Shown here one piece after another: positions 9,040-48,453 of a stretch of DNA of 64,000 bases (positions are counted from its first letter, which is position 1; each line of letters starts with the position of its first letter). The notes beneath the pieces are model-generated. The model searched no databases and was not told the DNA's origin. It saw only the letters and a list, made by a program, of their open reading frames with translations. This stretch comes from an uncultured Candidatus Saccharibacteria bacterium (GTDB lineage Bacteria; Patescibacteriota; Minisyncoccia; Phycocordibacterales; CSBR16-119), in contig CAZLAD010000003.1 of the NCBI GenBank assembly GCA_964557535.1, forward strand, positions 25,671 through 89,670. The letters run 5' to 3'. Both the position numbers and the translations under genes were made by a program.

Positions 9040-10395
9040 CTATTTAAACATAACTCGAATTTGTTCAAGGTCGCGGACAAGTTTTTGATCGGATTTTAGG
9101 TCGTTTTTAATTTTAAGACATGAGTGAATAACGGTCGTATGGTCTTTTCCACCAAGTTTCTGCCCTATTAAAGGATAAGAAATATTAAAATCCTCTCGGA
9201 GAATATACATAATTAGTTGGCGCGCACGAACAATTTCTTTTCTACGAGTTTTTTCGTAAATATTATCCTCTTCCACTTCATAAAACTCACTTATTGTCTT
9301 CACAACGTTTTGAATAGAGACGTTTTTACCGGGCTTAATGTTGTTTTTTATAAGTTTTTTGACTTCTATTACAGATAAATCTCGTTTTTTGAGCTGAATT
9401 TGGCAAATTACAGTATTTAGACTTCCTTCAAGTTCTCGGATAGATCCAGAAATAGAGGTGGCGATGTATTCGATAACCTCAGGTGATAAAGAAAGACCGT
9501 TTTCGTCCAATTTAGAGCGAATTATGGCCGTTCTCGACTCAATATCAGGCTCTGTGATATCAACTATCATTCCTTGAGCGAAACGAGTTCGTAGGCGGTC
9601 TTCTAGGCCTATTATTTGGTTGGGGTGTTTGTCTGAGGAGAAGATAATTTGCTTCTGATTCTCGTGAAGCGTGTTAAATAGGTGAAAAAGCTCTTCCTGA
9701 GTCTTTTCTTTGTTGGAAATAAACTGAACGTCGTCCATGATCAAGACGTCGTATTTACGATATTTTTGTTTAAATTCGTTTGGTTTGTTGTTTCGAAGAG
9801 AATTTACATAGTCGATGGCAAACTTCTCGAGAGGAATATAGTGAATTTGTTTGTTTGGAAATTTATCCTTAATCGCGTTTCCTATTGCTTGGATAAGGTG
9901 GGTTTTTCCGAGCCCTGTTGGACCATAGATAAAGAAAGGATTGTAGTTGTGGCCAGGGTTTTTGATTATTGATTGGGCGGCCGCGTGGGCAAGTTCGTTA
10001 AAAGATCCAACGATAAAAGAATCAAACGTGTAGCGAGGGTTTAGGTTGTCTTTCCTATCGACATAGAGGTTTTTTAGAGGGAGCTCGCCGACAACAAAGC
10101 CTTCGTTTTGGCTGATTTGCCCATCCTCAGGCTTTTTACTACTAGAAAGTTTTGCGATAACAAACTCCACACTACGAATGCCTTCAGAATAGTTTCGAAG
10201 AAGTCCTAAAATAGCGGTTTTGTGTTTGGTATTTAGCCAATCACGGACGAATTCGTTTGGTACAGAGATGTAAGCGGTACCGTTTTCTTGTTTTACTAAA
10301 TTTGTGTTTTTAAACCAGGTGACAAAGTTGGCTCGAGAGAGAGTCGATTCAATCTCATCCAAACAGCTTTCCCAAATTTGTTTATTATCAACCAT
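9040..10395 (-). CDS. dnaA: Chromosomal replication initiator DnaA
   Basis: 451 aa. Walker A 'GPTGLGKTHL', AAA+ core, and a C-terminal DnaA-box-binding helix region '...DHTTVIHS...'. Confidence 0.95.
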   Translation of the reverse strand: MVDNKQIWESCLDEIESTLSRANFVTWFKNTNLVKQENGTAYISVPNEFVRDWLNTKHKTAILGLLRNYSEGIRSVEFVIAKLSSSKKPEDGQISQNEGFVVGELPLKNLYVDRKDNLNPRYTFDSFIVGSFNELAHAAAQSIIKNPGHNYNPFFIYGPTGLGKTHLIQAIGNAIKDKFPNKQIHYIPLEKFAIDYVNSLRNNKPNEFKQKYRKYDVLIMDDVQFISNKEKTQEELFHLFNTLHENQKQIIFSSDKHPNQIIGLEDRLRTRFAQGMIVDITEPDIESRTAIIRSKLDENGLSLSPEVIEYIATSISGSIRELEGSLNTVICQIQLKKRDLSVIEVKKLIKNNIKPGKNVSIQNVVKTISEFYEVEEDNIYEKTRRKEIVRARQLIMYILREDFNISYPLIGQKLGGKDHTTVIHSCLKIKNDLKSDQKLVRDLEQIRVMFK

Positions 10396-10621
10396 GGTTT
10401 TTAAATTCTTGGCTAAAGACTAATGTTCGTTATTATAATTTATTTTTGTAATGTGTGGATAATTCAAAAATTGTGTACAACCTGTGAATTACTGTGGAAA
10501 AGTCGAAGGTTCTGAGGAGCTCGAAGGATGTGTGGAGAATTATACACGACTAATATTTTTCCGCGCAATATTTTCGCACCACACATTGATTTATTTTTAT
10601 GTCTAGTGTATACTTCCCCAC
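10396..10621. promoter_or_regulatory. Putative oriC / dnaA promoter region with a cluster of DnaA boxes
   Basis: Perfect TTATCCACA (complement of tgtggataa at 10454-10462). Near-consensus boxes follow: tgtgtacaa, tgtggaaaa, tgtggagaa, ccacacatt, ccccacatg. The region is AT-rich and lies between divergent dnaA and rpmH. A further TTATCAACA-like box sits at about 8857 in the dnaN-dnaA spacer. Confidence 0.7.
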
Positions 10622-15584: not shown

Positions 15585-15655
15585 GCGGGATTAGTTTATC
15601 GGTAAAACAACAGTTTTCCAAACTGTGGTGAGGAGTTCGACTCTCCTATCCCGCA
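15585..15655 (+). tRNA. tRNA-Gly (anticodon TCC)
   Basis: Manual cloverleaf: acceptor GCGGGAT/ATCCCGC, D-stem GTTT/AAAC, anticodon stem ACAGT/ACTGT with loop TTTCCAA, T-arm AGGAG-TTCGACT-CTCCT, discriminator A. No encoded CCA. TATAAT at 15571-15576. Confidence 0.8.
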
Positions 15656-15710
15656 CAAAAAGCAAGAATTGCTTTTTGGCAGGATAAGGAGGCAAAAAGT
15701 TTTGCCTCTG

Positions 15711-15805
15711 TGGAGATTCGAAGGCCGGAGCGATGCCCTTTGGGCGAGCGAGGCGGGGTCGCGAGTTCGCGAAGCGAAACTTGTGACCGACTCTCCTATC
15801 CCGCA
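15711..15805 (+). repeat. tRNA-linked repeat module ending in an 18-nt direct copy of the tRNA-Gly(TCC) 3' end (cgactctcctatcccgca at 15788-15805)
   Basis: The exact 18-mer is shared with 15638-15655. The upstream part (GATTCGAAGGCCGGAGCG...GAGCGAGGCGGGGTCGC) resembles, in reverse complement, the modules at 17780-17856 and 18143-18220. Confidence 0.5.
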
Positions 15806-15888
15806 CCGCTTAAAAGCGAAAGACGAGGGTGTGTGAACAGCCATGTCTGTGTGGGGACAATAGATTTTTATAATTTGGTTTGTAGAGT

Positions 15889-15961
15889 CGGGGCGTGGTG
15901 TAACGGCTAACATGTCTGTTTTGGGAACAGATGACTCCGGGTTCGAATCCCGGCGCCCCGA
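15889..15961 (+). tRNA. tRNA-Pro (anticodon TGG)
   Basis: Acceptor CGGGGCG/CGCCCCG, anticodon stem TCTGT/ACAGA with loop TTTGGGA, T-arm CCGGG-TTCGAAT-CCCGG, discriminator A. TATAAT at 15869-15874. Confidence 0.8.
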
Positions 15962-16023
15962 CTCTCTAAAGCAAATAAAATCTATTGTCCGGAGCCTAAA
16001 TGGCTCCGAGGCCCGAAGGGAGA

Positions 16024-16053
16024 GACTCCGGGTTCGAATCCCGGCGCCCCGAC
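16024..16053 (+). repeat. 30-nt direct copy of the tRNA-Pro 3' end (gactccgggttcgaatcccggcgccccgac), 63 nt downstream of the gene
   Basis: Identical to 15932-15961. Lacks a 5' acceptor partner, so it is not a complete tRNA. Confidence 0.55.
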
Positions 16054-16093
16054 AACTTTCAATAAAAAGCTAGAGCCCCGAGTAACCGGGGCC

Positions 16094-16660
16094 CTAGTAG
16101 TAAGGTGCGACAATCTTGTCTTCGCCGACGTAGTTAACAAGGTTTCTCCAGCTATCAATACCGCTGACGACGGCCTCAATCTCCATGTGGGGGCAGAAAC
16201 CCCTGGCCACCTCAATATCACTAACTGTGTCGGTGACAAAAGATACGTCTATCACAGGGTTGTATCCTTTGCAGAGTTGCCGGAACATCTCTTTCTTGTC
16301 TCGGGTGTCATCTTGAGTAAGAATCGGCCCAAAGAGGTGTCGGATACCAGAACCCTCCAAATGGCGCTCTATCGTTTCCTTGTTGTTAAGAGACGCTATT
16401 GCGAGTGTTGTTGAGATTGATTCCCTTTCAAGTCGTAGTACATTCTCTGGTGACATTGTTTTCGAGAAATACCTACGCACAAACGCCTCATAGTAGGGTC
16501 TGACCGAAGTTTCTTCGATCATTTCTTGGGTAAAGAATCCACCTTCAGCACCAATTCTCCATAGCAACTCTTCGGGGATTTCATTTGCCATTTCCAAAAC
16601 GCAATGAGAGGGGTGCTGGAAAAGTACCCCGTCGAAGTCGTAAATTCTTAACTTTTTCAT
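16094..16660 (-). CDS. HAD-superfamily hydrolase
   Basis: Start assumed at 'MKKLRIYDFDGVLF' (DxDG motif I of HAD phosphatases), giving 188 aa. Confidence 0.65.
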   Translation of the reverse strand: MKKLRIYDFDGVLFQHPSHCVLEMANEIPEELLWRIGAEGGFFTQEMIEETSVRPYYEAFVRRYFSKTMSPENVLRLERESISTTLAIASLNNKETIERHLEGSGIRHLFGPILTQDDTRDKKEMFRQLCKGYNPVIDVSFVTDTVSDIEVARGFCPHMEIEAVVSGIDSWRNLVNYVGEDKIVAPYY

Positions 16661-16713
16661 GAGCGGGGGTTTTCGACCAGATACTAGCACACCCCTTTTA
16701 AAAAACAATAAAA

Positions 16714-17112
16714 CTAAACCACGTTTTCCATCAGAACTACCTTCCCTGCTCGCCTTATTGGATCTATGTAAACTAGTGCTAGATCTACCTGGAAGTCCGC
16801 TTCGCCTAAATCTTTGGCCAAGCGGTAATATTCGACTGTTCGGACGAACCTCGCTATTTTCTTTGGATGCATGTTTTCCTCTGGTCGAAAGCCGGATGTT
16901 TCAGATGAAACATCGTCTAGTGTTACACGGGAAACGCTTTTCACTTCGATAAAGTGCCAATTTTTAGCTTTTTTCGCCACAATGTCTATTTCCCCACACT
17001 TTTGGGTGTAATTGGTCTCTATAATCTGGAAACCGTGTTTCATGAGAAACATAACGGCCAATTTCTCGCCAATTTCCCCGATCTTCTGGGTTTTTGAGGT
17101 AAAAGTTTTCAT
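16714..17112 (-). CDS. YraN/UPF0102-family endonuclease (restriction-endonuclease-like fold)
   Basis: 132 aa. 'GEIDIVAKK...HFIEVKS' matches the YraN core. Confidence 0.75.
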   Translation of the reverse strand: MKTFTSKTQKIGEIGEKLAVMFLMKHGFQIIETNYTQKCGEIDIVAKKAKNWHFIEVKSVSRVTLDDVSSETSGFRPEENMHPKKIARFVRTVEYYRLAKDLGEADFQVDLALVYIDPIRRAGKVVLMENVV

Positions 17113-17393
17113 CCCGCTGGTGATAGGAAGCGCTTCAGCCTAGCCCTGAGATAAGCTTTGCCTTGCCCAGATTTAAGTTGTAATTCCCTAGATTTTGCGT
17201 CTTCTTGATTTCGATAACACTCATAATATATAAGCTCAAATGGGCCTCTTCCCTTGGTGTGGAAACTCTTACCATGGTTATGTTGGTAAAAGCGCTTCCG
17301 TAGGTCACTTGTAAATCCGGTATACCAATTACCATCGGTTTTACTCCGAAGTACATAAGTGTAATAGAACTTAAAATCACTATCGGGATTCAT
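17109..17393 (-). CDS. GIY-YIG nuclease-domain protein
   Basis: 94 aa. 'YYTYVLRSKTDGNWYTGFTSDLRKRFYQHN' is the GIY-YIG signature. Overlaps the YraN start by 4 nt. Confidence 0.7.
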   Translation of the reverse strand: MNPDSDFKFYYTYVLRSKTDGNWYTGFTSDLRKRFYQHNHGKSFHTKGRGPFELIYYECYRNQEDAKSRELQLKSGQGKAYLRARLKRFLSPAG

Positions 17394-17779
17394 TCCAATA
17401 TTTTATCAATAAACCCAGAAAGTTACATGTGGAACCCGCCCGAACGTGCCGTTCGGTACGGGCGGGCATTTTCTAGGGTTTTTCACCATAAATAAGTCTA
17501 AAATAGACGTTTCATATGAAACGTTTCATAGGAAACGCCTGAAACCCATTATTTTTCAACGTTTTTAATTCATAAAGGACATTATTTGGTGGAAAAATAG
17601 GGACTTATTAACGTTATAAACAGGGTTATCCACATACTGGTCCCAGAAAAGCCTTATTTTATAATACCTGGGGCGTTGAGATTTTAAAAGACAAAAGTGG
17701 ATAAAGATGTGGGTAAAGGGGATAAAGGACAAATGTCTGGATGGGAATCGGTCACGCATAAATTCTTTCAGAATTTTGT

Positions 17780-17856
17780 GCGACCCCGACTCGGCGACAA
17801 GCACTCGTTTCGCTCGTCTTGTATACCGCCTCCGTCTTTCGATTCTCTTATCGCGG
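17780..17856. repeat. Copy 1 of a 70-nt tRNA-linked repeat (GCGACCCCGACTCGGCGACAAGCACTCGTTTCGCTCGTCTTGTATACCGCCTCCGTCTTTCGATTC...)
   Basis: About 95% identical to 18143-18210. Ends in a degenerate inverted copy of the tRNA-Gly(GCC) 3' end. Confidence 0.6.
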
Positions 17857-17905
17857 TAAAACACAAAGGCCCCAACGCTAACGCGTCAGGACATTGTGTT
17901 TTATG

Positions 17906-17976
17906 TGCGAGTAAGGGGAATCGAACCCCTGCCGTCTGATTGGCAACCAGACGTTCTACCATTAAACTATACTCGC
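17906..17976 (-). tRNA. tRNA-Gly (anticodon GCC)
   Basis: Reverse complement folds as acceptor GCGAGTA/TACTCGC, anticodon stem TCTGG/TCAGA with loop TTGCCAA, and T-loop TTCGATT. Confidence 0.8.
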
Positions 17977-18142
17977 AAATGAGAAGTGAAATAAGAATAG
18001 CACATGTTCTTATTTCCTTCGAATTCTGCGATTATATGAGGTTTACGCTCTTATACTCGCAAAATTGCCTTTTTAGATTAACATATCTTGACCAGGTCCA
18101 CTAGAGGGATTCGGTCACAGCTCTTTTGCTTCGCAAAAGGCC

Positions 18143-18220
18143 GCGACCCCGACTCAGCGACAAGCACTCGCTTCGCTCGTCTTGTATACCGCCTCCGTCT
18201 TTCGAATCCCTCTGGGTGCA
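18143..18220. repeat. Copy 2 of the 70-nt tRNA-linked repeat; its last 20 nt (TTCGAATCCCTCTGGGTGCA) are an inverted copy of the tRNA-Arg 3' end 50 nt away
   Basis: Forms a 21-bp perfect inverted repeat with 18269-18290. Confidence 0.6.
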
Positions 18221-18268
18221 AAAACAATAATCATGAAAAGCTAGCGCTTTCCATTCCTTTGTTTTTTG

Positions 18269-18340
18269 TGCACCCAGAGGGATTCGAACCCCCAATAACG
18301 GTTCCGAAGACCGTTGTGATATCCATTTCACCATGGGTGC
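18269..18340 (-). tRNA. tRNA-Arg (anticodon TCG)
   Basis: Reverse complement: acceptor GCACCCA/TGGGTGC, D-stem GTGA/TCAC, anticodon stem ACGGT/ACCGT with loop CTTCGGA, T-loop TTCGAAT. Confidence 0.8.
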
Positions 18341-24320: not shown

Positions 24321-24402
24321 GCCCAGGTGGCGAAACTGGTAGACGTACTACCTTGAGGTGGTAGCGCCGAAAGGCATGGAGGTTCGAGTCCTCTCCTGGG
24401 CA
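24321..24402 (+). tRNA. tRNA-Leu (anticodon GAG), class II with a long variable arm
   Basis: Acceptor GCCCAGG/CCTGGGC, anticodon stem CTACC/GGTAG with loop TTGAGGT, and variable arm CGCCGAAAGGCATG. Confidence 0.75.
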
Positions 24403-24447
24403 CAAAAAGAAAAAGCCTTTACGGGCTTTTTCTTTTTGTGCCCAGGA
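24403..24447. terminator. 17-bp perfect palindromic terminator (CACAAAAAGAAAAAGCC tttacg GGCTTTTTCTTTTTGTG)
   Basis: Read directly from the sequence; bidirectional. Confidence 0.65.
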
Positions 24448-24562
24448 AACGAGCCAATTGCTTGGCTTATGTGAGGGAGAGAAAGGCGCAGAAATATTTT
24501 TGTTTTGCGAAGCAAAGGCAAAAATGCCGAGCTGGGGCCACCCAATATGTTAGAATATTTCC

Positions 24563-25600
24563 ATGACAATTTTTGAACAAGTCTTTTTTAATTTAGGACC
24601 AGTTATTTTTGGTTTGGCTGGACTCAGCGTCGCCAGTTACGTTTACATAAAGAAAAAAACAGCACGACCGATGGTTTGCCCACTAAACGGCGAATGCGAA
24701 GTTGTCACGACCAGTAAATATTCCAAATTCTTTGGCATCCCAGTAGAACTTCTGGGAATTTTGTATTACGGACTTATTGTTTTCGTCTATGTTTTACACA
24801 ATCTCATACCATGGCTTTTGTCTGACACTGTTTTGTTCTTCGTTGTCGGGATGACTATCGGTGCGTTTATTTTCTCTCTTTATCTAATTTTCATACAAGC
24901 TTTTGTTTTGAAAAAGTGGTGTACATGGTGTCTGTTCTCGGCGGGATTTTCGACGTTTATATTTATTACAGCTATTTTTGGAACACAGATTGATGTGGTT
25001 GGTTTCTTGGCAACTTACAAAACTCCAATTATTATCATCCACGCTCTCGCCGCCGCGGTCGGTGTCGGGACGGCGACCATAACGGATATTTTCTTCTTCA
25101 AGTTTTTGCGCGACTATAAAATTTCTGAAAGCGAGAAAAATCTTCTAGATACGCTTTCAAATGTTATTTGGTTTGCGCTTGGAATTATTATTTTGACAGG
25201 AATCGGTCTTTACTTACCGGCGTCTGAAAGACTTGCCGAATCATCTAAATTCCTAACCAAGGTCGTGGCTGTAGCTGTCGTTACGATAAACGGCGTGTTC
25301 TTAAACTTGGTCGTTTCACCGAAAATGCTCGAAATGGATTTTTCGAATTCTGAAATTTCTCAAAAATCTGGCACACGTTTCATGCGCCGACTATCGTTCG
25401 CGCTTGGCGGTATCTCGATCTCGAGTTGGTACATCATCTTCGTTTTGGGGTCTCTCAAATCGATTCCCGTATCTTTCAAAACAGCAGTGATACTCTATGG
25501 ACTAGTCTTGTGTTTCGCGGTCGTTGCGACTCAGTTGCTTGATCGCAAAATGGTGCGAAATTACCAGGTAGAACAAGATAAAAATAATTCAAATGTTTAG
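24563..25600 (+). CDS. Vitamin K epoxide reductase (VKOR)-family membrane protein with an additional C-terminal multi-TM domain
   Basis: 345 aa. The N-terminal VKOR core has the active-site 'CTWC' after TM helices. The C-terminal half is hydrophobic. Confidence 0.7.
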   Translation: MTIFEQVFFNLGPVIFGLAGLSVASYVYIKKKTARPMVCPLNGECEVVTTSKYSKFFGIPVELLGILYYGLIVFVYVLHNLIPWLLSDTVLFFVVGMTIGAFIFSLYLIFIQAFVLKKWCTWCLFSAGFSTFIFITAIFGTQIDVVGFLATYKTPIIIIHALAAAVGVGTATITDIFFFKFLRDYKISESEKNLLDTLSNVIWFALGIIILTGIGLYLPASERLAESSKFLTKVVAVAVVTINGVFLNLVVSPKMLEMDFSNSEISQKSGTRFMRRLSFALGGISISSWYIIFVLGSLKSIPVSFKTAVILYGLVLCFAVVATQLLDRKMVRNYQVEQDKNNSNV

Positions 25601-26038: not shown

Positions 26039-26111
26039 GTGTAACGGTTAACACTGGAGCTTGTGGAGCTCTCAATTCGGGTTCGATTCCCGATAGCCAC
26101 CCCGCGTCAAA
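26039..26111 (+). tRNA. tRNA-His (anticodon GTG) with encoded G-1
   Basis: G-1 then acceptor GTGGCTA/TAGCCAC, discriminator C73. Anticodon loop TTGTGGA, T-loop TTCGATT. Confidence 0.8.
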
Positions 26112-26237
26112 CGTGGGCTCGCCCCGCGGAGACGGGTCGCGTTTGACGCGACCCGTCAATATGTTTCTCCAAAGTATCGTTTCACGACAACTTTTTAGGC
26201 TACCCCTAGAGGGGATAGAACTGGTATAATCTTTGCC

Positions 26238-40454: not shown

Positions 40455-40554
40455 TAATTTATAAGTTTTAAACACTTTTACACATTGACAATATCTTATT
40501 GTGTTTTTTTACTTTATAATAAACTCATTAAAACTTTATAATTATTATCATTGT

Positions 40555-43500
40555 ATGAAATTACAAAGAGCATTTTTTTTGGTTATCGCACTCGCTTTCG
40601 TTGTGTCGCTCGGAACTCTCCTCACCGGCGGAGATAATCAAAAAGCTCAAGTCGTAAGTGGAACGAATTCCATCGCCTTGACCGCTCCCGCTTCGGGAAC
40701 AACCGTGTCCGTTGGACAAACTCTACCGATGACATGTCAGGCTGAAGTTGCGCAGGGATATGGGCTATCAAGACTCAAGTTTTCATGGTTTCAAAACAAC
40801 GGAGCCGAGGCAGGCGATCTCAAGGATAACCAATATGACCCATATATGTCCTCGGGCACTTTCACTGAAAATGTCACCATCCCAAACATAACACCAGGAT
40901 CTAATTTCAAACTACAGTGTGTTGGCTACTACAAGGATTTGAGCGATCTTTCTATTCCAGCAATTTCCAAAACTCAAAGTCTCACAATGAACCTGGTTAC
41001 GGTTCCAGTCTCTGTCCCTGGTTGTATGGATCCGTTGGCTACAAACTACAACCAAAATGCAACATTAGATGATGGCTCATGTATATATCCGGTAGTCGAC
41101 ACAACAGCTCCGTCAGTTCCAACAAGTTTGACGGCGGCTTTGCCAACCTCGAGCGCCATTCGTATAAACTGGTCAGCCTCGACAGACAATGTAGCTGTTG
41201 CTGGATATAAGATTTATCGAAATGATGGTGGAAATACACCAATGAATTTAACAACCCCAATAGCTACAGTTATCGCACCTTCAACAACATTTTTGAATCA
41301 GGGCCTTGTTGCCAACAGAAAATATAAATACCAGATTCGTGCATATGATGCCGCCGGCAATGACTCAGGTCTTTCAAGTGCAATCACGGTGACAACTAGA
41401 TCTGTATCGACACCGACAAATGTAGCTGTAACTTCTCCAACAACTGTTTCTTTGACAGTTTCTTGGACTCCACCATCAGCTTCAAATACTTTTAGCTACA
41501 AAATTTATTCCAATCATGCAAATGGTGGAGGAACTTCTACTATAAATACGACAACGCCAGTCGGAGAAGTTTTTGTTTCGAGCGGATCAAACATGTTTGT
41601 ATTCGGCGACAACGATCCAGCTACCCCAATGCCACAATTGGCACCAAACACTCAATATCGTTTCAGAGTAGCTGCTGTTGATGACGCCAACAACAGATCA
41701 ACACTAATGCCAAACGTTTCTTCGGGTGTTTCTGGAACGACTCTTGGCAATACGACTCCGCCACCATCAGCACCTTCTGGGCTAAATGTCGTTACTACCG
41801 GATCGACAACCGCCACAGCTACATGGACAGACAACTCAAACAACGAAACAGGATTTACTTTGCAGAGGGCTACGAATTCCGGATTTAGTTCTAATTTAGT
41901 TACAATCTCTAGTACGATTTCTGCAAATTCCCAATCTTTTGGTGTAACTGGTCTTTCTGCGGGATCAACATATTATTTCCGTGTACAGGCAAATGCCTCG
42001 ACACCTTCAGCTTGGGCAACTTTTGGACCGCTTACATTGCCTGTTGCCGACACAACTGCACCAACAGCAACTATCACCGCGCCGACAGCAGGCCAGGTTT
42101 TGCCAGCGGGAACAGCCAGTACGACTTTGGCTGTCACGACAAACGAAAACGCCACTTGTAAATGGAATAGCACAGATGCCTCATATTCTTCTATGACTGG
42201 TTCTATGGCTGGTACAGGAACAATGTCACACACAGCAACACTCACAGGACTTGTAAATGGTACTAGTTATACACGATATGTACGATGCCAAGACGTAGCA
42301 GGTAACCCAATGACCACAAGTCAGTCCAGGACGTTTAGTGTTGCCGTGCCGGCTGATACAACAGCTCCAGCTATTCCAACACTTTCAGTTGGAACAATTA
42401 CTTCGGAAACCGTTGCGCTTTCTTGGAATGCTGTTACTGACCCATCTTCACCAGTTTCGTACAAGATTTACCGCAATGGCACTTATATTGGTTCTCCAAT
42501 TTCTGGCACTTCTACAACCGATTCTGGTTTAGTCGCCGGAACACTTTATTCATACACAATCTCTGCTTGCGACAATGCACCAACGCAAAACTGCTCCGCT
42601 CAATCAACCACAGTTACAGCGACAACAACCGCTATTCCAACAATAGTTTCATCTCTTCAGGTTGTTCAAACAAACGGAACAGTAGTCTCTACTCTTACGA
42701 GCGGACAACAACTAAACGTTGGCTCCCAAACAAACGCTACGTATCCACCACTTAATGGAGCTTTCTCTGTAAAGGCCAACCCAGGCACACCGGCTCCAAC
42801 AAGCATCAAGTTTGAATTGACAGGCCCTTCAGGATTTACGGCATACACTCAGTGCGAAAGTGCTTCGCCGTTCGCAATGTATGGCGATGCCTCTGGAACA
42901 TACACTTCATGGCCAACAGCTACTCAGATTTTGGGTGCGTACACGTTAACCGTAACTCCATACGCTGCCACTACTTGTACTGGGGCGGCGGGTACACCGA
43001 TTGTAAGCCAATTCATCTTGGCGAACTTTGATGACTTAACCAACCCGACAAATCCTTCACAAGCCAATGCCACATATAGATCGTCTGGAGAAATCAGGCT
43101 TTCTTGGACGGCTTCATCTGATTCGAGTGGAATTAGTCATTACAACGTTACGCGAACGCCGGGTGGTATTGTAAATGTCGGTAATCAAACAACATATGTA
43201 GACACGAATGGCTTAAATGGAACGACAGGATACACATATACTGTTACCGCAGTTGATAATGTCGGAAATTCTTCTGGTGTTTCAAATGCCGTTGTTTCGC
43301 CTACGCTTTCGACGACATTTAGTAATGCCGATCTGGTCCAAACAAACGAGGCCAGTGTAGAGGTAAAAGCTTCTCCAGACGCGCCTAATGGTATTGGTTT
43401 TCAAACAAATCCAAACTCCGCAGGTACTATTACAAACGCCCCAACATCTCCGACAAATCCAGTCTGGGTAAAAAATGAGGGCGATTATTGGTATGTAAAC

Positions 43501-46500
43501 TTTAACTCCGGACTCGATGGATGGGTAAACGAATCTAAAATTGATGCATTTGTTCCACAACCTCCAACCGCAAATATTACCGCACCAACCGCTGGACAAG
43601 TTCTCGCTTCTGGTACAACAACGGTAACTCTATACGTAACAACAAACGAAGCTGCTACTTGTAAATGGGCAACAACAGACATGGCTTATGCTTCTATGAC
43701 GAATACCTTTACCGGCTCTGGATCGACTTCTCACAACTATCCGTTACTTGGATTGACCGATGGAACACAATACACGCGATATGTTCGTTGTGCGGATACC
43801 GATGGTAATCAGATGACATCAAGCGTAAGTGTTTCGTTTAGTGTTGCGACAAGTGTGCCGACCGGCGATCCTGTCGTAAATACTACATGTCCAGCGACGA
43901 TGCCTACTATTGAGTACGATGCTCGAAACGCAGCGAGACTAACTGTTCAACTTTGTGCTCAGATCTCGGAAAGCTCTACACCAAAAACGATCACGCTTAA
44001 GTGGGCAAATGTTACAGGAAGAACGGTAAGTAGCATTACAATTTATCGAAAAACAGAAACTGGTTCATGGACAAGCGTCGGCACGCCGGCTGCTTCATCA
44101 ACAAGTTGGACAGACACAAATGTTACCGCTGGTACTTACTATGAATACAAAGTTCAAATGGTCACTGGTGGCTCAGAGGGAACAGTCTATGGATACATTG
44201 CTTCGGGTATAAAAGTTCCTCAAGAATCTTATCGAGGAAGACTGGTTTTGGTTGTTGATAACACCAAAGCTAACGGACTAAACGGTTCTGCTCCAACTTC
44301 TGGTCCACTCGCAACACAAGTTAGCCAGCTCATAAATGAATTAACTGGCGATAAATGGATCGTATCCCCTGTGTATGTTAGTCAGAGCGCAACACCAGCA
44401 ACAGTTAGAGCCTTGATAAAAGGATACTACGATACAGACGCGGGCGATGGTAATTCAAATACAAATACAAAAGCAGTATATATCTTTGGTCATGTTCCGG
44501 TTGCGGGTATAGGTAATCTAAATCCAGATGGACACGGAGGAAGAGGAATTTCAAGTGACGTAATTTATAGTGAAATGACTTCGACTTGGAACACGGGCTC
44601 CGTTGGATCATCGGCCGGTTATGGTGTGTCAGCAGGTTTCACTATGCCAAGTACTCATACTTATAACAATCCAACTCCAGACGCGGGAGAGCTACAGGTT
44701 GGACGTGTCGATATGTATAATCTTCCTGGTATGCCGGGGACCGAAAATGAAAAACTTACTAACTATCTTGCAAAGGCAACAAATTTCAAAAAACGACTAT
44801 ATACGCCAACTGACACGATGTATCTAAGAGCTAGAACTCCTTTCACATCTTCGGGTATGGCCGGCTGGAGTAGTACAGCCTCTGTGGTCGGACCTCAAAA
44901 CGTGACTCACGATAGAACAGCAAGCGACCTTTGGACAAACTTGGGTCAAAATCATCTCTTTGTTCTAGGTTACGGACAAAGCGGTGGCGTGTTGGCGGTA
45001 GACAAGATTCCTCAGCCAGGGCTATGTATTTCTGGATGCGGTTCAAACAACTTGACGAGTGTTAGCTGGGGTGGAGTATTTAACGCCCTCAGTTCAAGTT
45101 ATATCGTTGAATGGAACGATACAAACTCAATCCTGCGATCTATTTTGGCCGATGAAGGAAAATCACTTACTATGTCATACGGCATAGATAACCATTGGTA
45201 TTTCCACCACATGGGAATGGGCAAGACCGTCGGGTATTCGGCGCTTAGCTCGCTAAACAACAATACGAACTTGTATTATCCACGAGGCATGACAGGTGAT
45301 TGGAATAATTCAAGCAATGGAAACAATGCATACGGTCACATGGCACTCCTTGGAGACCCAACTCTTCGTGCTCACTATGTTGGTATGCCGACAGGAAATC
45401 TCTCTATTACAAACAGTGGCGGATTGGCAGCGTTTTCATGGGGTGCGTCGAGCGATTCACCGCTTGGATATAACCTCTACGAGATTCAGACGAATACGAT
45501 TAGAAAAGTAAATTCAAATATTATTTCTGGAACTTCATATACTTCTTCTGATAGCTATGATGCAAATAGAAAGTATATGGTAACGGCGGTTAAAGTGAGG
45601 GCTGGTAATAGCGGAACATACTACAATGAATCCCTAGGACTTATTGGTGGAGGTGACGGAGGCGGTGTACTCTTGGGCGATCTCGATAACCCAACATGGT
45701 CTGGAGGAACATCGAATCTCACGGTTACTTCACCAACTGCAACTTCTCTCGCTACTTCGTGGAACACTGCAACAGACGCGACACAACCTGTAACTTACAA
45801 ACTTCAAAGAAGAGCGAGCGGAGGATCATTTGCCGAAGTGTATAGCGGAACAGCAACGTCTTTCTCAAATACAGGACTTGTCGCAGGGACAACCTATGAA
45901 TTTCAAGTGAGAGCTTGTGATGGCGTAGGAATTCCAAACTGCACCAGCTGGTCTTCGACGGTTTCAGGCACAACAACAGCAAACGACACTACATCACCAA
46001 CAACTCCGGGCGCTCCGACATCTACTGGCATAACAGCTTCATCGATCAGTCTTTCTTGGACTGCGTCGACTGACGCCGTAGGCGTAACAGGCTACAAGAT
46101 TTACAGAAGCGCAACAGCTGGTGGAACTTACTCAGAAATCGGAACTTCGGCAACGAATTCCTATACAGACACTGGACTTTCGGCAAGTACATCGTATTAC
46201 TATAAAATTTCCGCATACGACGCTGCTGCGAATAATTCTGCTCAATCAAGTGCTTCTGCTGCGATCACAACTAGCCAAGCTCAAAGTGGGGGACAGACAG
46301 TCTCTGGTATCAATGGTCCAGTTGGTCCGAGCTTAACGACAAATCAAACCTCTTGTACCAATCCTTCCGGTGGAACGATTTACTACGTAGATGCTGTAAA
46401 TGGAAATGATTCAAACAACGGAACGTCAGTTAGTACAGCTTGGAAAACAATCACCAAGGTCAACAACTCGATGTCTAGTATCAACGCCGGAATGATGCTT

Positions 46501-48453
46501 TGTTTCAAGAGGGGCCAGACACATCGCGGTAAACTTTCATTCATAAAATCTGGAACATCAACATCTCCAATTATTATCGATGCATATGGAACAGGTTCTG
46601 CACCAGTTATCTCTGGTAATGTTCTTGTGACAAATTGGACCCAACACTCTGGAAATATTTGGAAAGCAACACTTTCTAGTGCACCGGTAACTCCACCAAA
46701 ATATTTGTTCGTCAATAGTGATTATCAAACAATGGCGCGTCAACCAAACACTGGTTGGTATTACACAGAAGCTCGTGCCGCGAACTCTCTAACGGACACA
46801 AATAACTCTTGGCTTTCTTCACAATCTGCTAACTCTTTGACTGGCGCAAATATCTTCATGAGAGGAACACCTTGGTCAAGTTCAGTTATTCTTGTAACGG
46901 GCAATTCAGGTTCTACTATAAACGGTGAACGCTGGGATGACCTTACGCCAGGAGTCGTGTCAGGCACGCCAACAGCTATTAAATACGGTACGACATGGTC
47001 TGATCTTGCATGGGGATATTTCCTCCGAAACAAGGTTTCCTTCATCGACACACCAGGCGAATGGGCATTTGATTCGGCCACAAACACTGTCTATTTATGG
47101 GCACCAGGAAGTGCAAATCCAAACAACCTGACAGTAGAGCTTTCTTCAGAAGCAGAGGGCATCTACTTGAATACAGCAAGTTATGTCAAAGTTAGAAACT
47201 TGATTGTCGAAGGCCAAACAACCTACGCCATTCGTATGAGTTCTAATCGTGGTGTGACGCTTGAAAACAATGAAATTAGAAATGCTTACATTGGAGTTCA
47301 CCAATATTTCACGTCTTCTAGTTACACTACCCCAAACTTATTCTCCAATAACCACATTCATGACATAAACACAGCTGGTCTTTCTTTGAACGTGTCAGGT
47401 TCTGGAGATGTTGTAGAGGGCAACGTTGTCGAAAATATCTCAACCGTCGAAGACAGAATATTCTCTTCGGACATGACACATATCGGTATCTTGCCTCCGA
47501 ACAACAATGGAATCACCAGAAGAAACATTATTCGAGATATTGGATGGTCTGGAATCGCGGCAAGTGGATCTGGCCTTATCACCGAAAACTTGATTGAACG
47601 AACGATGAAGATTCACACTGACGGTGCCGGTATTACATTTGACAATACTGACGGCTTGGTGATGAGTAAAAATATCGTCAAAGATACGGGGGTTGGTTCT
47701 GGTCAATACGCAGGAACAACTGCAGGACCAGGAGCAACGACCAACATGGTTTCAATGCCTCTTATTTACAATGGTTATTCGGCAAAAGACAAGGCTTTCT
47801 ATGTCGGAGATAGTTCAGCCGGCGGTCCACCAAAAAATTACACAATCGATGGAAACATTATCATCAATGCCACCGACGGTGTTTGGATGGATCATCCAAA
47901 CGGTGTAATCAATAATAAAGTAACCAATAACGTAATCTACGATTTCAATCGGGCAGGTATCGGAATAACGAATTATTCGATGAATCGATCGACAACCTGT
48001 GATCCGGCAGAAAATAGTGCGTGCTTTAGAAATTTTGACGACACGATTACCGGAAATAAGATTTATGGCGTTGCTTCTTATCAAAACCCACTTTATTCTC
48101 TCCAGTCATGGAGTAATGGCGCGGGAGCGGTAGTTGATTGGGGAACGATTAACAATAACTACTACTACAATCCGTTCAGAACTGGCAAGATTTATGAAGT
48201 TAGAAACTTTGGTACAGGCGAAAATCAATGGACATTGGCTCAGTGGCAAGCAGCACGTAGTGAAGATCTCAATTCCACATCTTCGAACTATACTTTGACC
48301 AATACAAACCAAAAAGCCCAAATCTTCTATAATGCGACTGGTTCACCGATCACTCAATCAGTAAATGGATGTAATGCTAATGGTACACCTCTAACAGGTA
48401 ACCAGACGATTCAACCATTTACCGCGCTAGTAGTAGAATATGGAAATTGTTAA
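40555..48453 (+). CDS. Giant secreted or surface protein (about 2630 aa). Signal peptide, one GCMDPxATNYN...DDGSC Cys-motif, multiple fibronectin type III-like domains, a duplicated 95-aa 'CKW' module, and C-terminal right-handed parallel beta-helix (pectate-lyase-like) repeats.
   Basis: ATG at 40555 precedes 'MKLQRAFFLVIALAFVVSLGTLLTG'; the GTG at 40501 is rejected. Many FN3 blocks ('SAIRINWSASTDNVAVAGYKIYRN', 'SWNAVTDPSSPVSYKIYRN'). Two homologous modules around 42050-42340 and 43560-43850 ('TNE[NA]ATCKW...TRYVRC'). PbH1-type repeats from about 47150 to 48100 ('NNEIRNAYIGV', 'GNVVENIS', 'NIIRDIGWSGIAAS', 'KNIVKDTGVGSG'). Confidence 0.8.
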   Translation: MKLQRAFFLVIALAFVVSLGTLLTGGDNQKAQVVSGTNSIALTAPASGTTVSVGQTLPMTCQAEVAQGYGLSRLKFSWFQNNGAEAGDLKDNQYDPYMSSGTFTENVTIPNITPGSNFKLQCVGYYKDLSDLSIPAISKTQSLTMNLVTVPVSVPGCMDPLATNYNQNATLDDGSCIYPVVDTTAPSVPTSLTAALPTSSAIRINWSASTDNVAVAGYKIYRNDGGNTPMNLTTPIATVIAPSTTFLNQGLVANRKYKYQIRAYDAAGNDSGLSSAITVTTRSVSTPTNVAVTSPTTVSLTVSWTPPSASNTFSYKIYSNHANGGGTSTINTTTPVGEVFVSSGSNMFVFGDNDPATPMPQLAPNTQYRFRVAAVDDANNRSTLMPNVSSGVSGTTLGNTTPPPSAPSGLNVVTTGSTTATATWTDNSNNETGFTLQRATNSGFSSNLVTISSTISANSQSFGVTGLSAGSTYYFRVQANASTPSAWATFGPLTLPVADTTAPTATITAPTAGQVLPAGTASTTLAVTTNENATCKWNSTDASYSSMTGSMAGTGTMSHTATLTGLVNGTSYTRYVRCQDVAGNPMTTSQSRTFSVAVPADTTAPAIPTLSVGTITSETVALSWNAVTDPSSPVSYKIYRNGTYIGSPISGTSTTDSGLVAGTLYSYTISACDNAPTQNCSAQSTTVTATTTAIPTIVSSLQVVQTNGTVVSTLTSGQQLNVGSQTNATYPPLNGAFSVKANPGTPAPTSIKFELTGPSGFTAYTQCESASPFAMYGDASGTYTSWPTATQILGAYTLTVTPYAATTCTGAAGTPIVSQFILANFDDLTNPTNPSQANATYRSSGEIRLSWTASSDSSGISHYNVTRTPGGIVNVGNQTTYVDTNGLNGTTGYTYTVTAVDNVGNSSGVSNAVVSPTLSTTFSNADLVQTNEASVEVKASPDAPNGIGFQTNPNSAGTITNAPTSPTNPVWVKNEGDYWYVNFNSGLDGWVNESKIDAFVPQPPTANITAPTAGQVLASGTTTVTLYVTTNEAATCKWATTDMAYASMTNTFTGSGSTSHNYPLLGLTDGTQYTRYVRCADTDGNQMTSSVSVSFSVATSVPTGDPVVNTTCPATMPTIEYDARNAARLTVQLCAQISESSTPKTITLKWANVTGRTVSSITIYRKTETGSWTSVGTPAASSTSWTDTNVTAGTYYEYKVQMVTGGSEGTVYGYIASGIKVPQESYRGRLVLVVDNTKANGLNGSAPTSGPLATQVSQLINELTGDKWIVSPVYVSQSATPATVRALIKGYYDTDAGDGNSNTNTKAVYIFGHVPVAGIGNLNPDGHGGRGISSDVIYSEMTSTWNTGSVGSSAGYGVSAGFTMPSTHTYNNPTPDAGELQVGRVDMYNLPGMPGTENEKLTNYLAKATNFKKRLYTPTDTMYLRARTPFTSSGMAGWSSTASVVGPQNVTHDRTASDLWTNLGQNHLFVLGYGQSGGVLAVDKIPQPGLCISGCGSNNLTSVSWGGVFNALSSSYIVEWNDTNSILRSILADEGKSLTMSYGIDNHWYFHHMGMGKTVGYSALSSLNNNTNLYYPRGMTGDWNNSSNGNNAYGHMALLGDPTLRAHYVGMPTGNLSITNSGGLAAFSWGASSDSPLGYNLYEIQTNTIRKVNSNIISGTSYTSSDSYDANRKYMVTAVKVRAGNSGTYYNESLGLIGGGDGGGVLLGDLDNPTWSGGTSNLTVTSPTATSLATSWNTATDATQPVTYKLQRRASGGSFAEVYSGTATSFSNTGLVAGTTYEFQVRACDGVGIPNCTSWSSTVSGTTTANDTTSPTTPGAPTSTGITASSISLSWTASTDAVGVTGYKIYRSATAGGTYSEIGTSATNSYTDTGLSASTSYYYKISAYDAAANNSAQSSASAAITTSQAQSGGQTVSGINGPVGPSLTTNQTSCTNPSGGTIYYVDAVNGNDSNNGTSVSTAWKTITKVNNSMSSINAGMMLCFKRGQTHRGKLSFIKSGTSTSPIIIDAYGTGSAPVISGNVLVTNWTQHSGNIWKATLSSAPVTPPKYLFVNSDYQTMARQPNTGWYYTEARAANSLTDTNNSWLSSQSANSLTGANIFMRGTPWSSSVILVTGNSGSTINGERWDDLTPGVVSGTPTAIKYGTTWSDLAWGYFLRNKVSFIDTPGEWAFDSATNTVYLWAPGSANPNNLTVELSSEAEGIYLNTASYVKVRNLIVEGQTTYAIRMSSNRGVTLENNEIRNAYIGVHQYFTSSSYTTPNLFSNNHIHDINTAGLSLNVSGSGDVVEGNVVENISTVEDRIFSSDMTHIGILPPNNNGITRRNIIRDIGWSGIAASGSGLITENLIERTMKIHTDGAGITFDNTDGLVMSKNIVKDTGVGSGQYAGTTAGPGATTNMVSMPLIYNGYSAKDKAFYVGDSSAGGPPKNYTIDGNIIINATDGVWMDHPNGVINNKVTNNVIYDFNRAGIGITNYSMNRSTTCDPAENSACFRNFDDTITGNKIYGVASYQNPLYSLQSWSNGAGAVVDWGTINNNYYYNPFRTGKIYEVRNFGTGENQWTLAQWQAARSEDLNSTSSNYTLTNTNQKAQIFYNATGSPITQSVNGCNANGTPLTGNQTIQPFTALVVEYGNC

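Follow-up and report, generated by a model that had tools for sequence, protein, structure and literature searches.

Why are the tRNA genes of one bacterial gene cluster accompanied by partial copies of their own ends? The question is raised by a 64,000-nucleotide (nt) stretch of an uncultured Candidatus Saccharibacteria bacterium (contig CAZLAD010000003.1, positions 25,671 to 89,670 of the forward strand; here called the window), in which an initial annotation, made from the letters of the sequence alone, had reported such copies beside four tRNA genes and related sequence in front of three of them. The readings offered there were attachment (att) site scars of an element that repeatedly visits tRNA genes, a tRNA-derived family resembling short interspersed nuclear elements (SINEs), and structures that pair with tRNA precursors. 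We conclude that the repeats in the window are probably (at roughly 60%) copies of a small (~130-190 nt) non-coding insertion element that is specific for the 3' ends of tRNA and transfer-messenger RNA (tmRNA; together t/tmRNA) genes in Patescibacteria.

Duplicated tRNA ends and a shared module in the window

Calls by ARAGORN and Rfam returned the tRNA identities and positions that had been annotated initially (Table 1). The exact direct repeat of the tRNA-Gly(TCC) end was likewise recovered, with a length of 19 nt rather than the reported 18 nt, as was the exact 30-nt copy of the tRNA-Pro(TGG) end (15933-15962, repeated at 16024-16053). At tRNA-Arg(TCG), the 20-nt inverted copy proved to be the inner part, exactly complementary to the tRNA 3' end, of a 30-nt inverted repeat with 90% identity (18201-18230/18259-18288), and the degenerate inverted copy described for tRNA-Gly(GCC) was found at approximately 17840-17856. 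The module said to be shared by three of these sites is real, although its size had been set too small: a pattern built from the three copies (TCGAANNNCGGAG..CGGGGTC..GTGACCGA) matched the window only at 15718-15790 (+), 17748-17842 (-) and 18111-18205 (-), and was matched in 0 of 100 shuffles. Under a covariance model, the three main window copies score 61-70 bits.

The element and its repeat are gained and lost together

The initial annotation had proposed a comparison with syntenic relatives, and this comparison revealed presence/absence polymorphism of the element. Seven syntenic loci (L121-L127) were fetched via RNase Y homologues, giving eight genomes together with the window, and have the order HU, tRNA-Gly(TCC)/Pro, YraN, DnaA-box region, tRNA-Gly(GCC)/Arg and CCA-adding enzyme. 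The filled Gly(TCC) site of the window reads ..CCCGCAC / 131-nt element / CGACTCTCCTATCCCGCAC / CGCTTAAAAGCG, and the empty sites read ..CCCGCAC / CGCTTAAAAGCG in L122 and ..CCCGCAC / CGCAGT in L123. At the Arg site, L122 has the element and the same 19-nt repeat, and L121 has the empty form. The element and its 19-nt repeat are gained or lost as a unit between close relatives. The idea of att-site scars therefore holds insofar as the duplicated tRNA ends are linked to insertion, given these exact empty sites, but no larger element has departed: the 130-190 nt between the repeats are the element itself, still in place.

Across the eight genomes, the module follows between 0 and 3 of the same four tRNAs: three in the window, two in L122, one each in L121, L126 and L127, and none in L123 or L125, the latter of which carries a different core type after tRNA-Pro. 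Different subfamilies can occupy the same tRNA in different genomes, as seen when the Gly(GCC) copy of the window is compared to those of L121 and L122, which points to independent gains or to replacement.

Anatomy and predicted fold of the element

Read on the tRNA strand, an intact tRNA gene with its encoded C74 is followed by a hairpin (H0) that has an A-rich and a T-rich arm, an inverted copy of the tRNA end (IR), a core, and a direct copy of the tRNA end that begins at C56; the element spans 130-190 nt and contains no open reading frame (ORF). The core is modeled as a three-way junction in which the closing stem P1 is formed by the IR and the displaced copy (..GGAAUCG / CGAUUCC..). Next come the junction nucleotides AAA or AAG, stem P2 with three base pairs, a GGA/GA internal loop and a variable hairpin, then GGG, and finally stem P3 (GUCG...YGUGAC) with a variable tip. 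This geometry implies that the copies of the tRNA end correspond to both strands of P1 together with the true gene end, and are not independent features.

An alignment of 55 copies showed covariation in support of this fold, with 92.9% of cells paired compared to 35-43% in controls with slid partners, and with 292 double-change cells observed versus 86 in shuffles. In the 3-bp P2 stem, the middle pair occurs as C-G, A-U, U-A and G-C, and one G.U pair in P3 is invariant, of which the search pattern had fixed only the U side. Since G.U pairs are tolerated and A.C pairs are few, the structure would form on the tRNA-sense strand only; this strand could act as RNA or as single-stranded DNA, of which RNA seems more likely. 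A kissing loop between a CUGC hairpin loop and the GCAG loop of the core was also considered, and was dismissed because it appeared inconsistent across copies when inspected by eye.

Besides the three main copies, a decayed fourth copy lies downstream of tRNA-Leu(GAG). Its core scores 17 bits (E = 0.025, covariance model), while H0, the acceptor strand copy GCCCAGG and the CCAATTGCTTGG hairpin are intact; the right repeat is absent from this copy.

Table 1 Positions (window coordinates) of the tRNA genes and of the parts of the associated elements
Feature	Positions	Strand	Remarks
tRNA-Gly(TCC)	15585-15656	+	intact; 15656 is the encoded C74; left copy of repeat at 15638-15656
H0 of Gly(TCC) element	15657-15677	+	A-tract/T-tract hairpin AAAAAGCAA GAA TTGCTTTTT; left end of the element; missing in the empty sites of L122 and L123
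Inverted copy of acceptor and T-stem 3' strand	15679-15691	+	GCAGGATAAGGAG; extends the H0 palindrome into the tRNA end
Hairpin H1 of Gly(TCC) element	15688-15709	+	GGAGGCAAAA AG TTTTGCCTCT
IR of Gly(TCC) element (5' strand of P1)	15712-15720	+	GGAGATTCG; complements the start of the right repeat
Three-way-junction core of Gly(TCC) element	15721-15787	+	junction (AAG), P2 (GCC-GGA-hairpin-GA-GGC), GGG, P3 (GUCG...GUGAC); 61 bits
Right (displaced) copy of tRNA C56-C74, Gly(TCC)	15788-15806	+	followed by CGCTTAAAAGCG, which directly adjoins the tRNA in empty sites
tRNA-Pro(TGG)	15889-15962	+	followed by a 61-nt module-free insertion (15963-16023) and then by the tRNA 3' part, copied exactly over 30 nt (16024-16053)
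tRNA-Gly(GCC)	17905-17976	-	ARAGORN and Rfam
H0 of Gly(GCC) element	17857-17904	-	terminator-like hairpin
Remainder of Gly(GCC) element	17733-17856	-	degenerate IR 17840-17856; core 17751-17839 (69.5 bits); decayed right copy 17733-17750
tRNA-Arg(TCG)	18268-18340	-	ARAGORN and Rfam
H0 of Arg element	18221-18267	-	A/T arms lengthen the palindrome of tRNA 3' end and IR
Remainder of Arg element	18096-18220	-	IR 18203-18220 (exact complement of the tRNA 3' end); core 18114-18202 (70 bits)
Right copy of Arg element	18096-18113	-	acceptor part decayed
tRNA-Leu(GAG)	24321-24403	+	upstream of the fourth, decayed copy
Decayed fourth copy	24404-24572	+	H0 24404-24438; copy of acceptor 5' strand GCCCAGG 24440-24446; CCAATTGCTTGG hairpin 24451-24468; degenerate core 24496-24572

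A second core type with the same ends was found in L121 (minus strand, ~10100-10298), in L125 (9837-9975) and in two further loci (L009 and L043). It is laid out as (IR)UCGAAAG, a long hairpin with a GAGCGAAGCGAG tip, ACC, a short hairpin, and CCGA plus the copy of the tRNA end, and it was missed by the covariance model of the first core. This suggests a superfamily that is defined by its ends.

A family at many t/tmRNA genes of Patescibacteria

Further copies of the module, a search for which had also been proposed initially, were sought in two scans, one covering one genome per species (at least 120 loci) and one covering metagenomes, which together yielded at least 240 public loci. Hosts among the listed matches of the genome scan were nearly all Patescibacteria (Saccharibacteria, Paceibacteria, Nomura-, Kaiser-, Taylor- and Falkowbacteria, WWE3 and others), with a few contigs labelled otherwise whose binning was not checked. 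Among these same matches, a same-strand tRNA gene lay 14-119 nt (median 61) upstream in 100/124 modules, comprising at least 34 different anticodons, and the last 13 nt of the tRNA recurred exactly after the module in 56 of the 100. Among the listed metagenome matches, a same-strand tRNA or tmRNA was present within 200 nt upstream of 96 of the 117 evaluable modules, and an exact 13-nt repeat of the gene end followed the module in 50 of these 96. Taken over the listed matches of both scans, ~80% of modules are thus located 14-200 nt downstream of a same-strand tRNA or tmRNA, approximately half of them followed by an exact repeat of the gene end. Where a tRNA is lacking, several modules lie after a tmRNA gene, and others after an earlier element in a tandem array, where the displaced copy serves as the new target. 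The proposal of a repeat family that visits many tRNA genes was thereby borne out, as the module recurs across many loci and anticodons.

In the first 100 loci, the covariance model recovered 131 copies, and a single 8-kb stretch could contain as many as four. Mosaic elements also occur: the second and third window sites share a near-identical P2 and differ in P3 and H0, and another example was seen in L094. Elements that are 95% identical were found at tRNA-Lys in one genome and at tRNA-Arg in another.

The point of insertion could be placed from the scanned loci. The direct repeat starts at C56 in every case and usually ends 0-6 nt beyond the gene (a few measure 50-80 nt and represent tandem or mosaic elements), and the upstream tRNA was intact in 100/100 genome-scan cases. 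A C follows the gene, as the encoded C74, in 115/122 module-free tRNA genes from the genome-scan loci and the window, and a full CCA is present in only 28%. This fraction compares to 24% for right copies and to only 10% for module-bearing tRNAs (p = 3e-4), which indicates that the right copy and its flank are the original gene end, that the element sits directly after C74, and that an encoded CCA, where present, is split by the element.

Searches for known relatives and for partner genes returned little. Rfam 15, which includes ribozymes, group I/II introns, tmRNA, retron and guide RNAs, gave nothing but tRNAs over the window copies (E <= 1) and over five loci with canonical copies (E <= 0.1), and full-text literature searches found no description of the element. 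The module pattern had no match in viral contigs or phage genomes, and an origin from a phage or plasmid was set aside. No free circular forms occurred among the metagenome matches, all of which are on ordinary contigs of at least 1 kb. The reported lack of an integrase holds for the window ORFs tested, among which there was no recombinase or reverse transcriptase, and neither enzyme type was enriched within 3 kb of the 240 loci. When ORFs located up to 3-3.5 kb from 120 and later 240 loci were clustered, nothing but housekeeping synteny emerged (MiaA, YraN, CCA-adding enzyme, SmpB and others), and one small helix-turn-helix protein occurred near 8 loci.

The inverted copy follows the upstream tRNA

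The IR is usually 7-10 nt long, spans positions 56-60 of the T-loop and a portion of the T stem, and reaches 17-20 nt in some copies. Its origin as a copy of the tRNA 5' strands was considered and rejected, as informative G.U positions favored a complement of the 3' strand by 9 to 4. The IR matches positions 59-60 of its target, and wherever the tRNA and the right copy differ, it agrees with the tRNA at 164 positions and with the right copy at 57. The segment complementary to the acceptor always adjoins the 3' arm of H0, so that the tRNA end, H0 and IR form one long palindrome.

Orthologous Arg elements of the window, L126 and L127, whose RNase Y proteins are 73-74% identical, illustrate this further. 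The IR tracks four changes of the tRNA end in these genomes, and the acceptor part of the right copy has decayed. The supposition that inverted copies pair with the tRNA was accordingly sustained to the extent that they are complementary to its 3' end and follow its changes across orthologues. Quasi-palindrome correction by template switching is a known mutational process, and the agreement between IR and tRNA fits either this process, acting rapidly, or selection for pairing. Among the same three elements, the flanks have diverged but no change is seen in the core junction or at the base of P2 (100% conservation), a contrast that indicates constraint or repeated homogenization by other copies.

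How the element may spread

The route of spread that we propose, tentatively and at somewhat less than even odds, relies on anchors in the target and requires no enzyme of the element's own. Copies would spread by double crossover or by template switching during replication, using two anchors, namely the gene end (..N73-C74) and the start of the T-loop and T-stem (CGA-NN-CC), both of which would be available in every t(m)RNA gene and in every resident copy. Because resident copies are bracketed in this manner by sequence common to all t(m)RNA genes, the element could be copied into another such gene, and the donor may be either a resident copy or DNA taken up from outside, with uptake permitting transfer between genomes. 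Anchored copying would regenerate the tRNA and automatically yield the C56-C74 repeat, and the match of the IR to target positions 59-60 would reflect the homology needed for the right-hand switch. Palindrome correction or selection would preserve the complementarity of the IR to the tRNA end, and the core would be under purifying selection, most likely as RNA.

Several points weigh against this interpretation. No movement was observed, and the anchor route was deduced from geometry; its left anchor comprises only 2-4 nt between unlike tRNAs, which is thin, and the strong conservation of the core is left unexplained. The IR match to positions 59-60 would fit equally well with a guide for a trans-acting enzyme encoded elsewhere in the genome, beyond the 8-kb flanks that were examined. 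The 25 bases fixed by the search pattern are invariant by construction, and the covariation signal stems from the columns that were not forced. Finally, because the terminator-like H0 separates the tRNA from the core, the core is only putatively transcribed.

One alternative is that the insertion is guided by RNA (or single-stranded DNA), with the core as scaffold or catalytic RNA, the IR as a guide pairing with C56-C74, and either a trans-acting enzyme or the RNA itself cutting at 55/56 and ~19 nt downstream to produce the 19-nt target duplication. The covariation of the IR with target positions 59-60, the sufficiency of the displaced copy alone as a target in tandem arrays, the fixed left boundary at C56 with a repeat of ~19 nt, and the strong, RNA-like conservation of the core would all be expected from such a mechanism. 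We nonetheless regard it as unlikely, as no candidate protein was enriched near the 240 loci, Rfam held no matching guide RNA or ribozyme, the IR measures only 7-9 nt in many copies, and long IRs follow the upstream tRNA, as palindrome correction would give, rather than the right copy with which they pair. The related notion that the nucleic acid of the three-way junction itself bears a guide or acts as a catalyst, and that its IR reads the T-loop-to-3'-end segment of any t/tmRNA gene and directs its own insertion, is rather doubtful as well. A protein-based solution, in which the element is a miniature satellite of tRNA-gene islands that carries the tRNA 3' part in its attP and is served in trans by the tyrosine integrase of a phage or island, would leave precisely the regenerated tRNA and displaced fragment described for islands in tRNA and tmRNA genes (PMC4383910), has a precedent for attB sites in the T-loop in Ms6 (PMC1762012), and would account for the use of tmRNA genes. 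Integrases are site-specific, however, and the logic of a single classical integrase fits poorly with one core family at 34 anticodons plus tmRNA; moreover, no integrase was found within 3 kb of the 240 loci, the pattern was unmatched in viral contigs and phage genomes, and the conserved strand-specific fold with its G.U pair points to a single-stranded nucleic acid. Such a satellite origin is therefore quite improbable in our estimation.

Low odds are also given to a cis-acting RNA that serves the host, for which the IR would be the shared strand of a three-strand switch, pairing either with the tRNA 3' half and blocking its folding or with the downstream copy and closing the junction, which would be a sensor or protein-binding module that controls tRNA maturation or read-through. 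The four compensatory changes between tRNA 3' end and IR across the three Arg orthologues, the predicted folding of a read-through transcript into a long hairpin of tRNA 3' end and IR, the aptamer-like conservation of the junction and P1, and the long retention of the site beside the gene for the CCA-adding enzyme are consistent with this function, and competing pairings of the IR, which a riboswitch-like cis regulator would need, do exist. Yet the presence of the element is polymorphic and varies even among close relatives, one of which has no module and a different core type after tRNA-Pro; any type of tRNA, or a tmRNA, can be the host gene; tandem arrays and decayed copies occur; a terminator-like hairpin precedes the IR; and covariation can be mimicked by palindrome correction. 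Overall, a small insertion element remains the reading that we prefer, with the anchor-based route as its possible means of spread.

Relation to known systems

Integrative islands in tRNA and tmRNA genes regenerate their target and leave a displaced fragment (PMC4383910), and attB sites in the T-loop are known, as for Ms6 (PMC1762012). Similar to such islands and prophages (by the Islander definition and with Ms6-type attB sites), the element regenerates its target, has the displaced 3' fragment at its far end, bears a repeat that runs from the T-loop to the gene end, and also uses tmRNA genes. In contrast to them, it measures 130-190 nt and has neither integrase nor cargo, a single family uses at least 34 anticodons where an island lineage uses one or very few targets, a conserved folded core occupies the place where the T-loop of the displaced fragment would be, and an inverted copy of the target is present. 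With miniature inverted-repeat transposable elements (MITEs) it has in common that it is small, non-coding, multicopy, polymorphic among strains and flanked by a direct repeat. This repeat is 19 nt or more and defined by the gene, however, compared to duplications of 2-10 nt for MITEs, the inverted repeat is copied from the local tRNA end and is not a transposon terminus, no parent transposon was found, and the interior exhibits RNA-type covariation.

Site-specific retroelements that are transcribed together with their target, such as R2, its internally deleted derivatives and SINEs, resemble the element by their location in or next to structural-RNA genes, a target-derived end, and a structured RNA as the conserved part. 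To our knowledge, R2-type site-specific retroelements and SINEs are known from eukaryotes and not from bacteria. Different from these, no reverse transcriptase was found for the element, an A-rich or LINE-like (long interspersed nuclear element) tail is missing, and the CCA statistics oppose copying of a mature tRNA. Integron attC sites and the attP of CTX phage are also imperfect, strand-specific palindromes with a variable or branched tip, in which the stem structure is kept over the sequence, but the junction sequence of the element is highly conserved and the arms of its palindrome are copies of the target gene. Overall, it is a miniature element at tRNA-type genes with island-like geometry, and was previously undescribed.

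Several other identities were considered and set aside. The SINE-like, tRNA-derived retroposon of the initial annotation does not apply, as only the target-derived acceptor and T-stem strands are copied, with no D arm, anticodon arm, tail, CCA excess or reverse transcriptase partner. Retro-copying of mature, CCA-tailed tRNA had seemed attractive until the apparent CCA excess in copies vanished against a proper background. The element is not a tmRNA or two-piece tmRNA, as ARAGORN detects ordinary tmRNAs upstream of some copies. It is not a tRNA-gene intron, since the functional gene is uninterrupted and the element follows C74, nor an intron in the T-loop of a second tRNA copy, since a tRNA 5' half could not fit into spacers that measure as little as 14 nt in some copies.

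With genomes of ~1 Mb, Patescibacteria are regarded as carrying little mobile DNA. Here, a 150-nt element that is present in hundreds of species-level genomes shows rapid turnover at essential genes and leaves these intact, providing a natural case of safe-harbour insertion with a regenerated target, a likely driver of tRNA-cluster rearrangement in these genomes, and a practical marker of strain variation for metagenomes of the candidate phyla radiation. Its core is a new structured motif, of RNA or single-stranded DNA, that is conserved and covaries strongly. If the core were to prove a guide or ribozyme, the element would be a compact programmable insertion system and categorically new; with a guide or catalytic function, it would represent a new class of RNA-programmed mobile element that has no protein gene and parasitizes the translation apparatus of ultra-small bacteria.

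A separate insertion at tRNA-Pro and further observations

The repeats listed initially are not all one phenomenon, as that of tRNA-Pro(TGG) is a different, separate small insertion. It comprises 61 nt without a module, and its 30-nt repeat starts in the variable loop; it is common to the window, L122 and L126 and absent from L123 and L127, and L121 and L125 have the second core type in its place. The leader and trailer of this tRNA can pair over ~37 bp past the acceptor stem, with inverted repeats at 15873-15895/15954-15976 and 15855-15868/15977-15990. A 16-nt stretch upstream of the gene (15842-15857) resembles the anticodon arm of the same tRNA.

The reported copy of the tRNA-Gly(GCC) 5' end exists as an exact 12-nt match at 18052-18063, 3 nt from the position first given, with the first 9 nt of the gene recurring 84 nt upstream of it (17977-18063, minus strand). 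It varies in step with the tRNA in relatives (GCGAGTATA / GCGGGTATA / GCGGCTATA), is also present in L123 and L126, and is followed by GAATTCGAAGG, which is similar to the start of the module. This copy may be what is left of an element, or it may belong to a promoter or leader.

Close relatives keep the left-to-right order of the tRNA genes in the cluster, but the genes change strand individually: the Gly(GCC)/Arg pair reads Gly>Arg> in L121, L122 and L125, and L123, L126 and L127 have <Gly<Arg, as does the window. Strand changes of this kind also affect the Gly(TCC)/Pro pair, and a simple block inversion is inadequate to explain them. At 9075-14100 of L124, a large serine recombinase and a HinfI-type restriction-modification system adjoin tRNA-Gly(TCC), in the place of YraN and the remainder of the tRNA cluster.

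Sites resembling the DnaA box (TTATCCACA, at most one mismatch) form two clusters in the window, at 10454-10539 and 17626-17716. One adjoins dnaA; the other lies directly beside the Gly(GCC) element and is kept in relatives. Together they place the tRNA cluster in the region of the replication origin. Elsewhere in the window, tRNA-His is directly followed by two nested G+C-rich inverted repeats (26104-26160; GCGTCAAACG..CGTTTGACGC and GACGGGTCGCG..CGCGACCCGTC) that are unrelated to the module, and positions 40501-48453 form a single ORF of 2650 aa.

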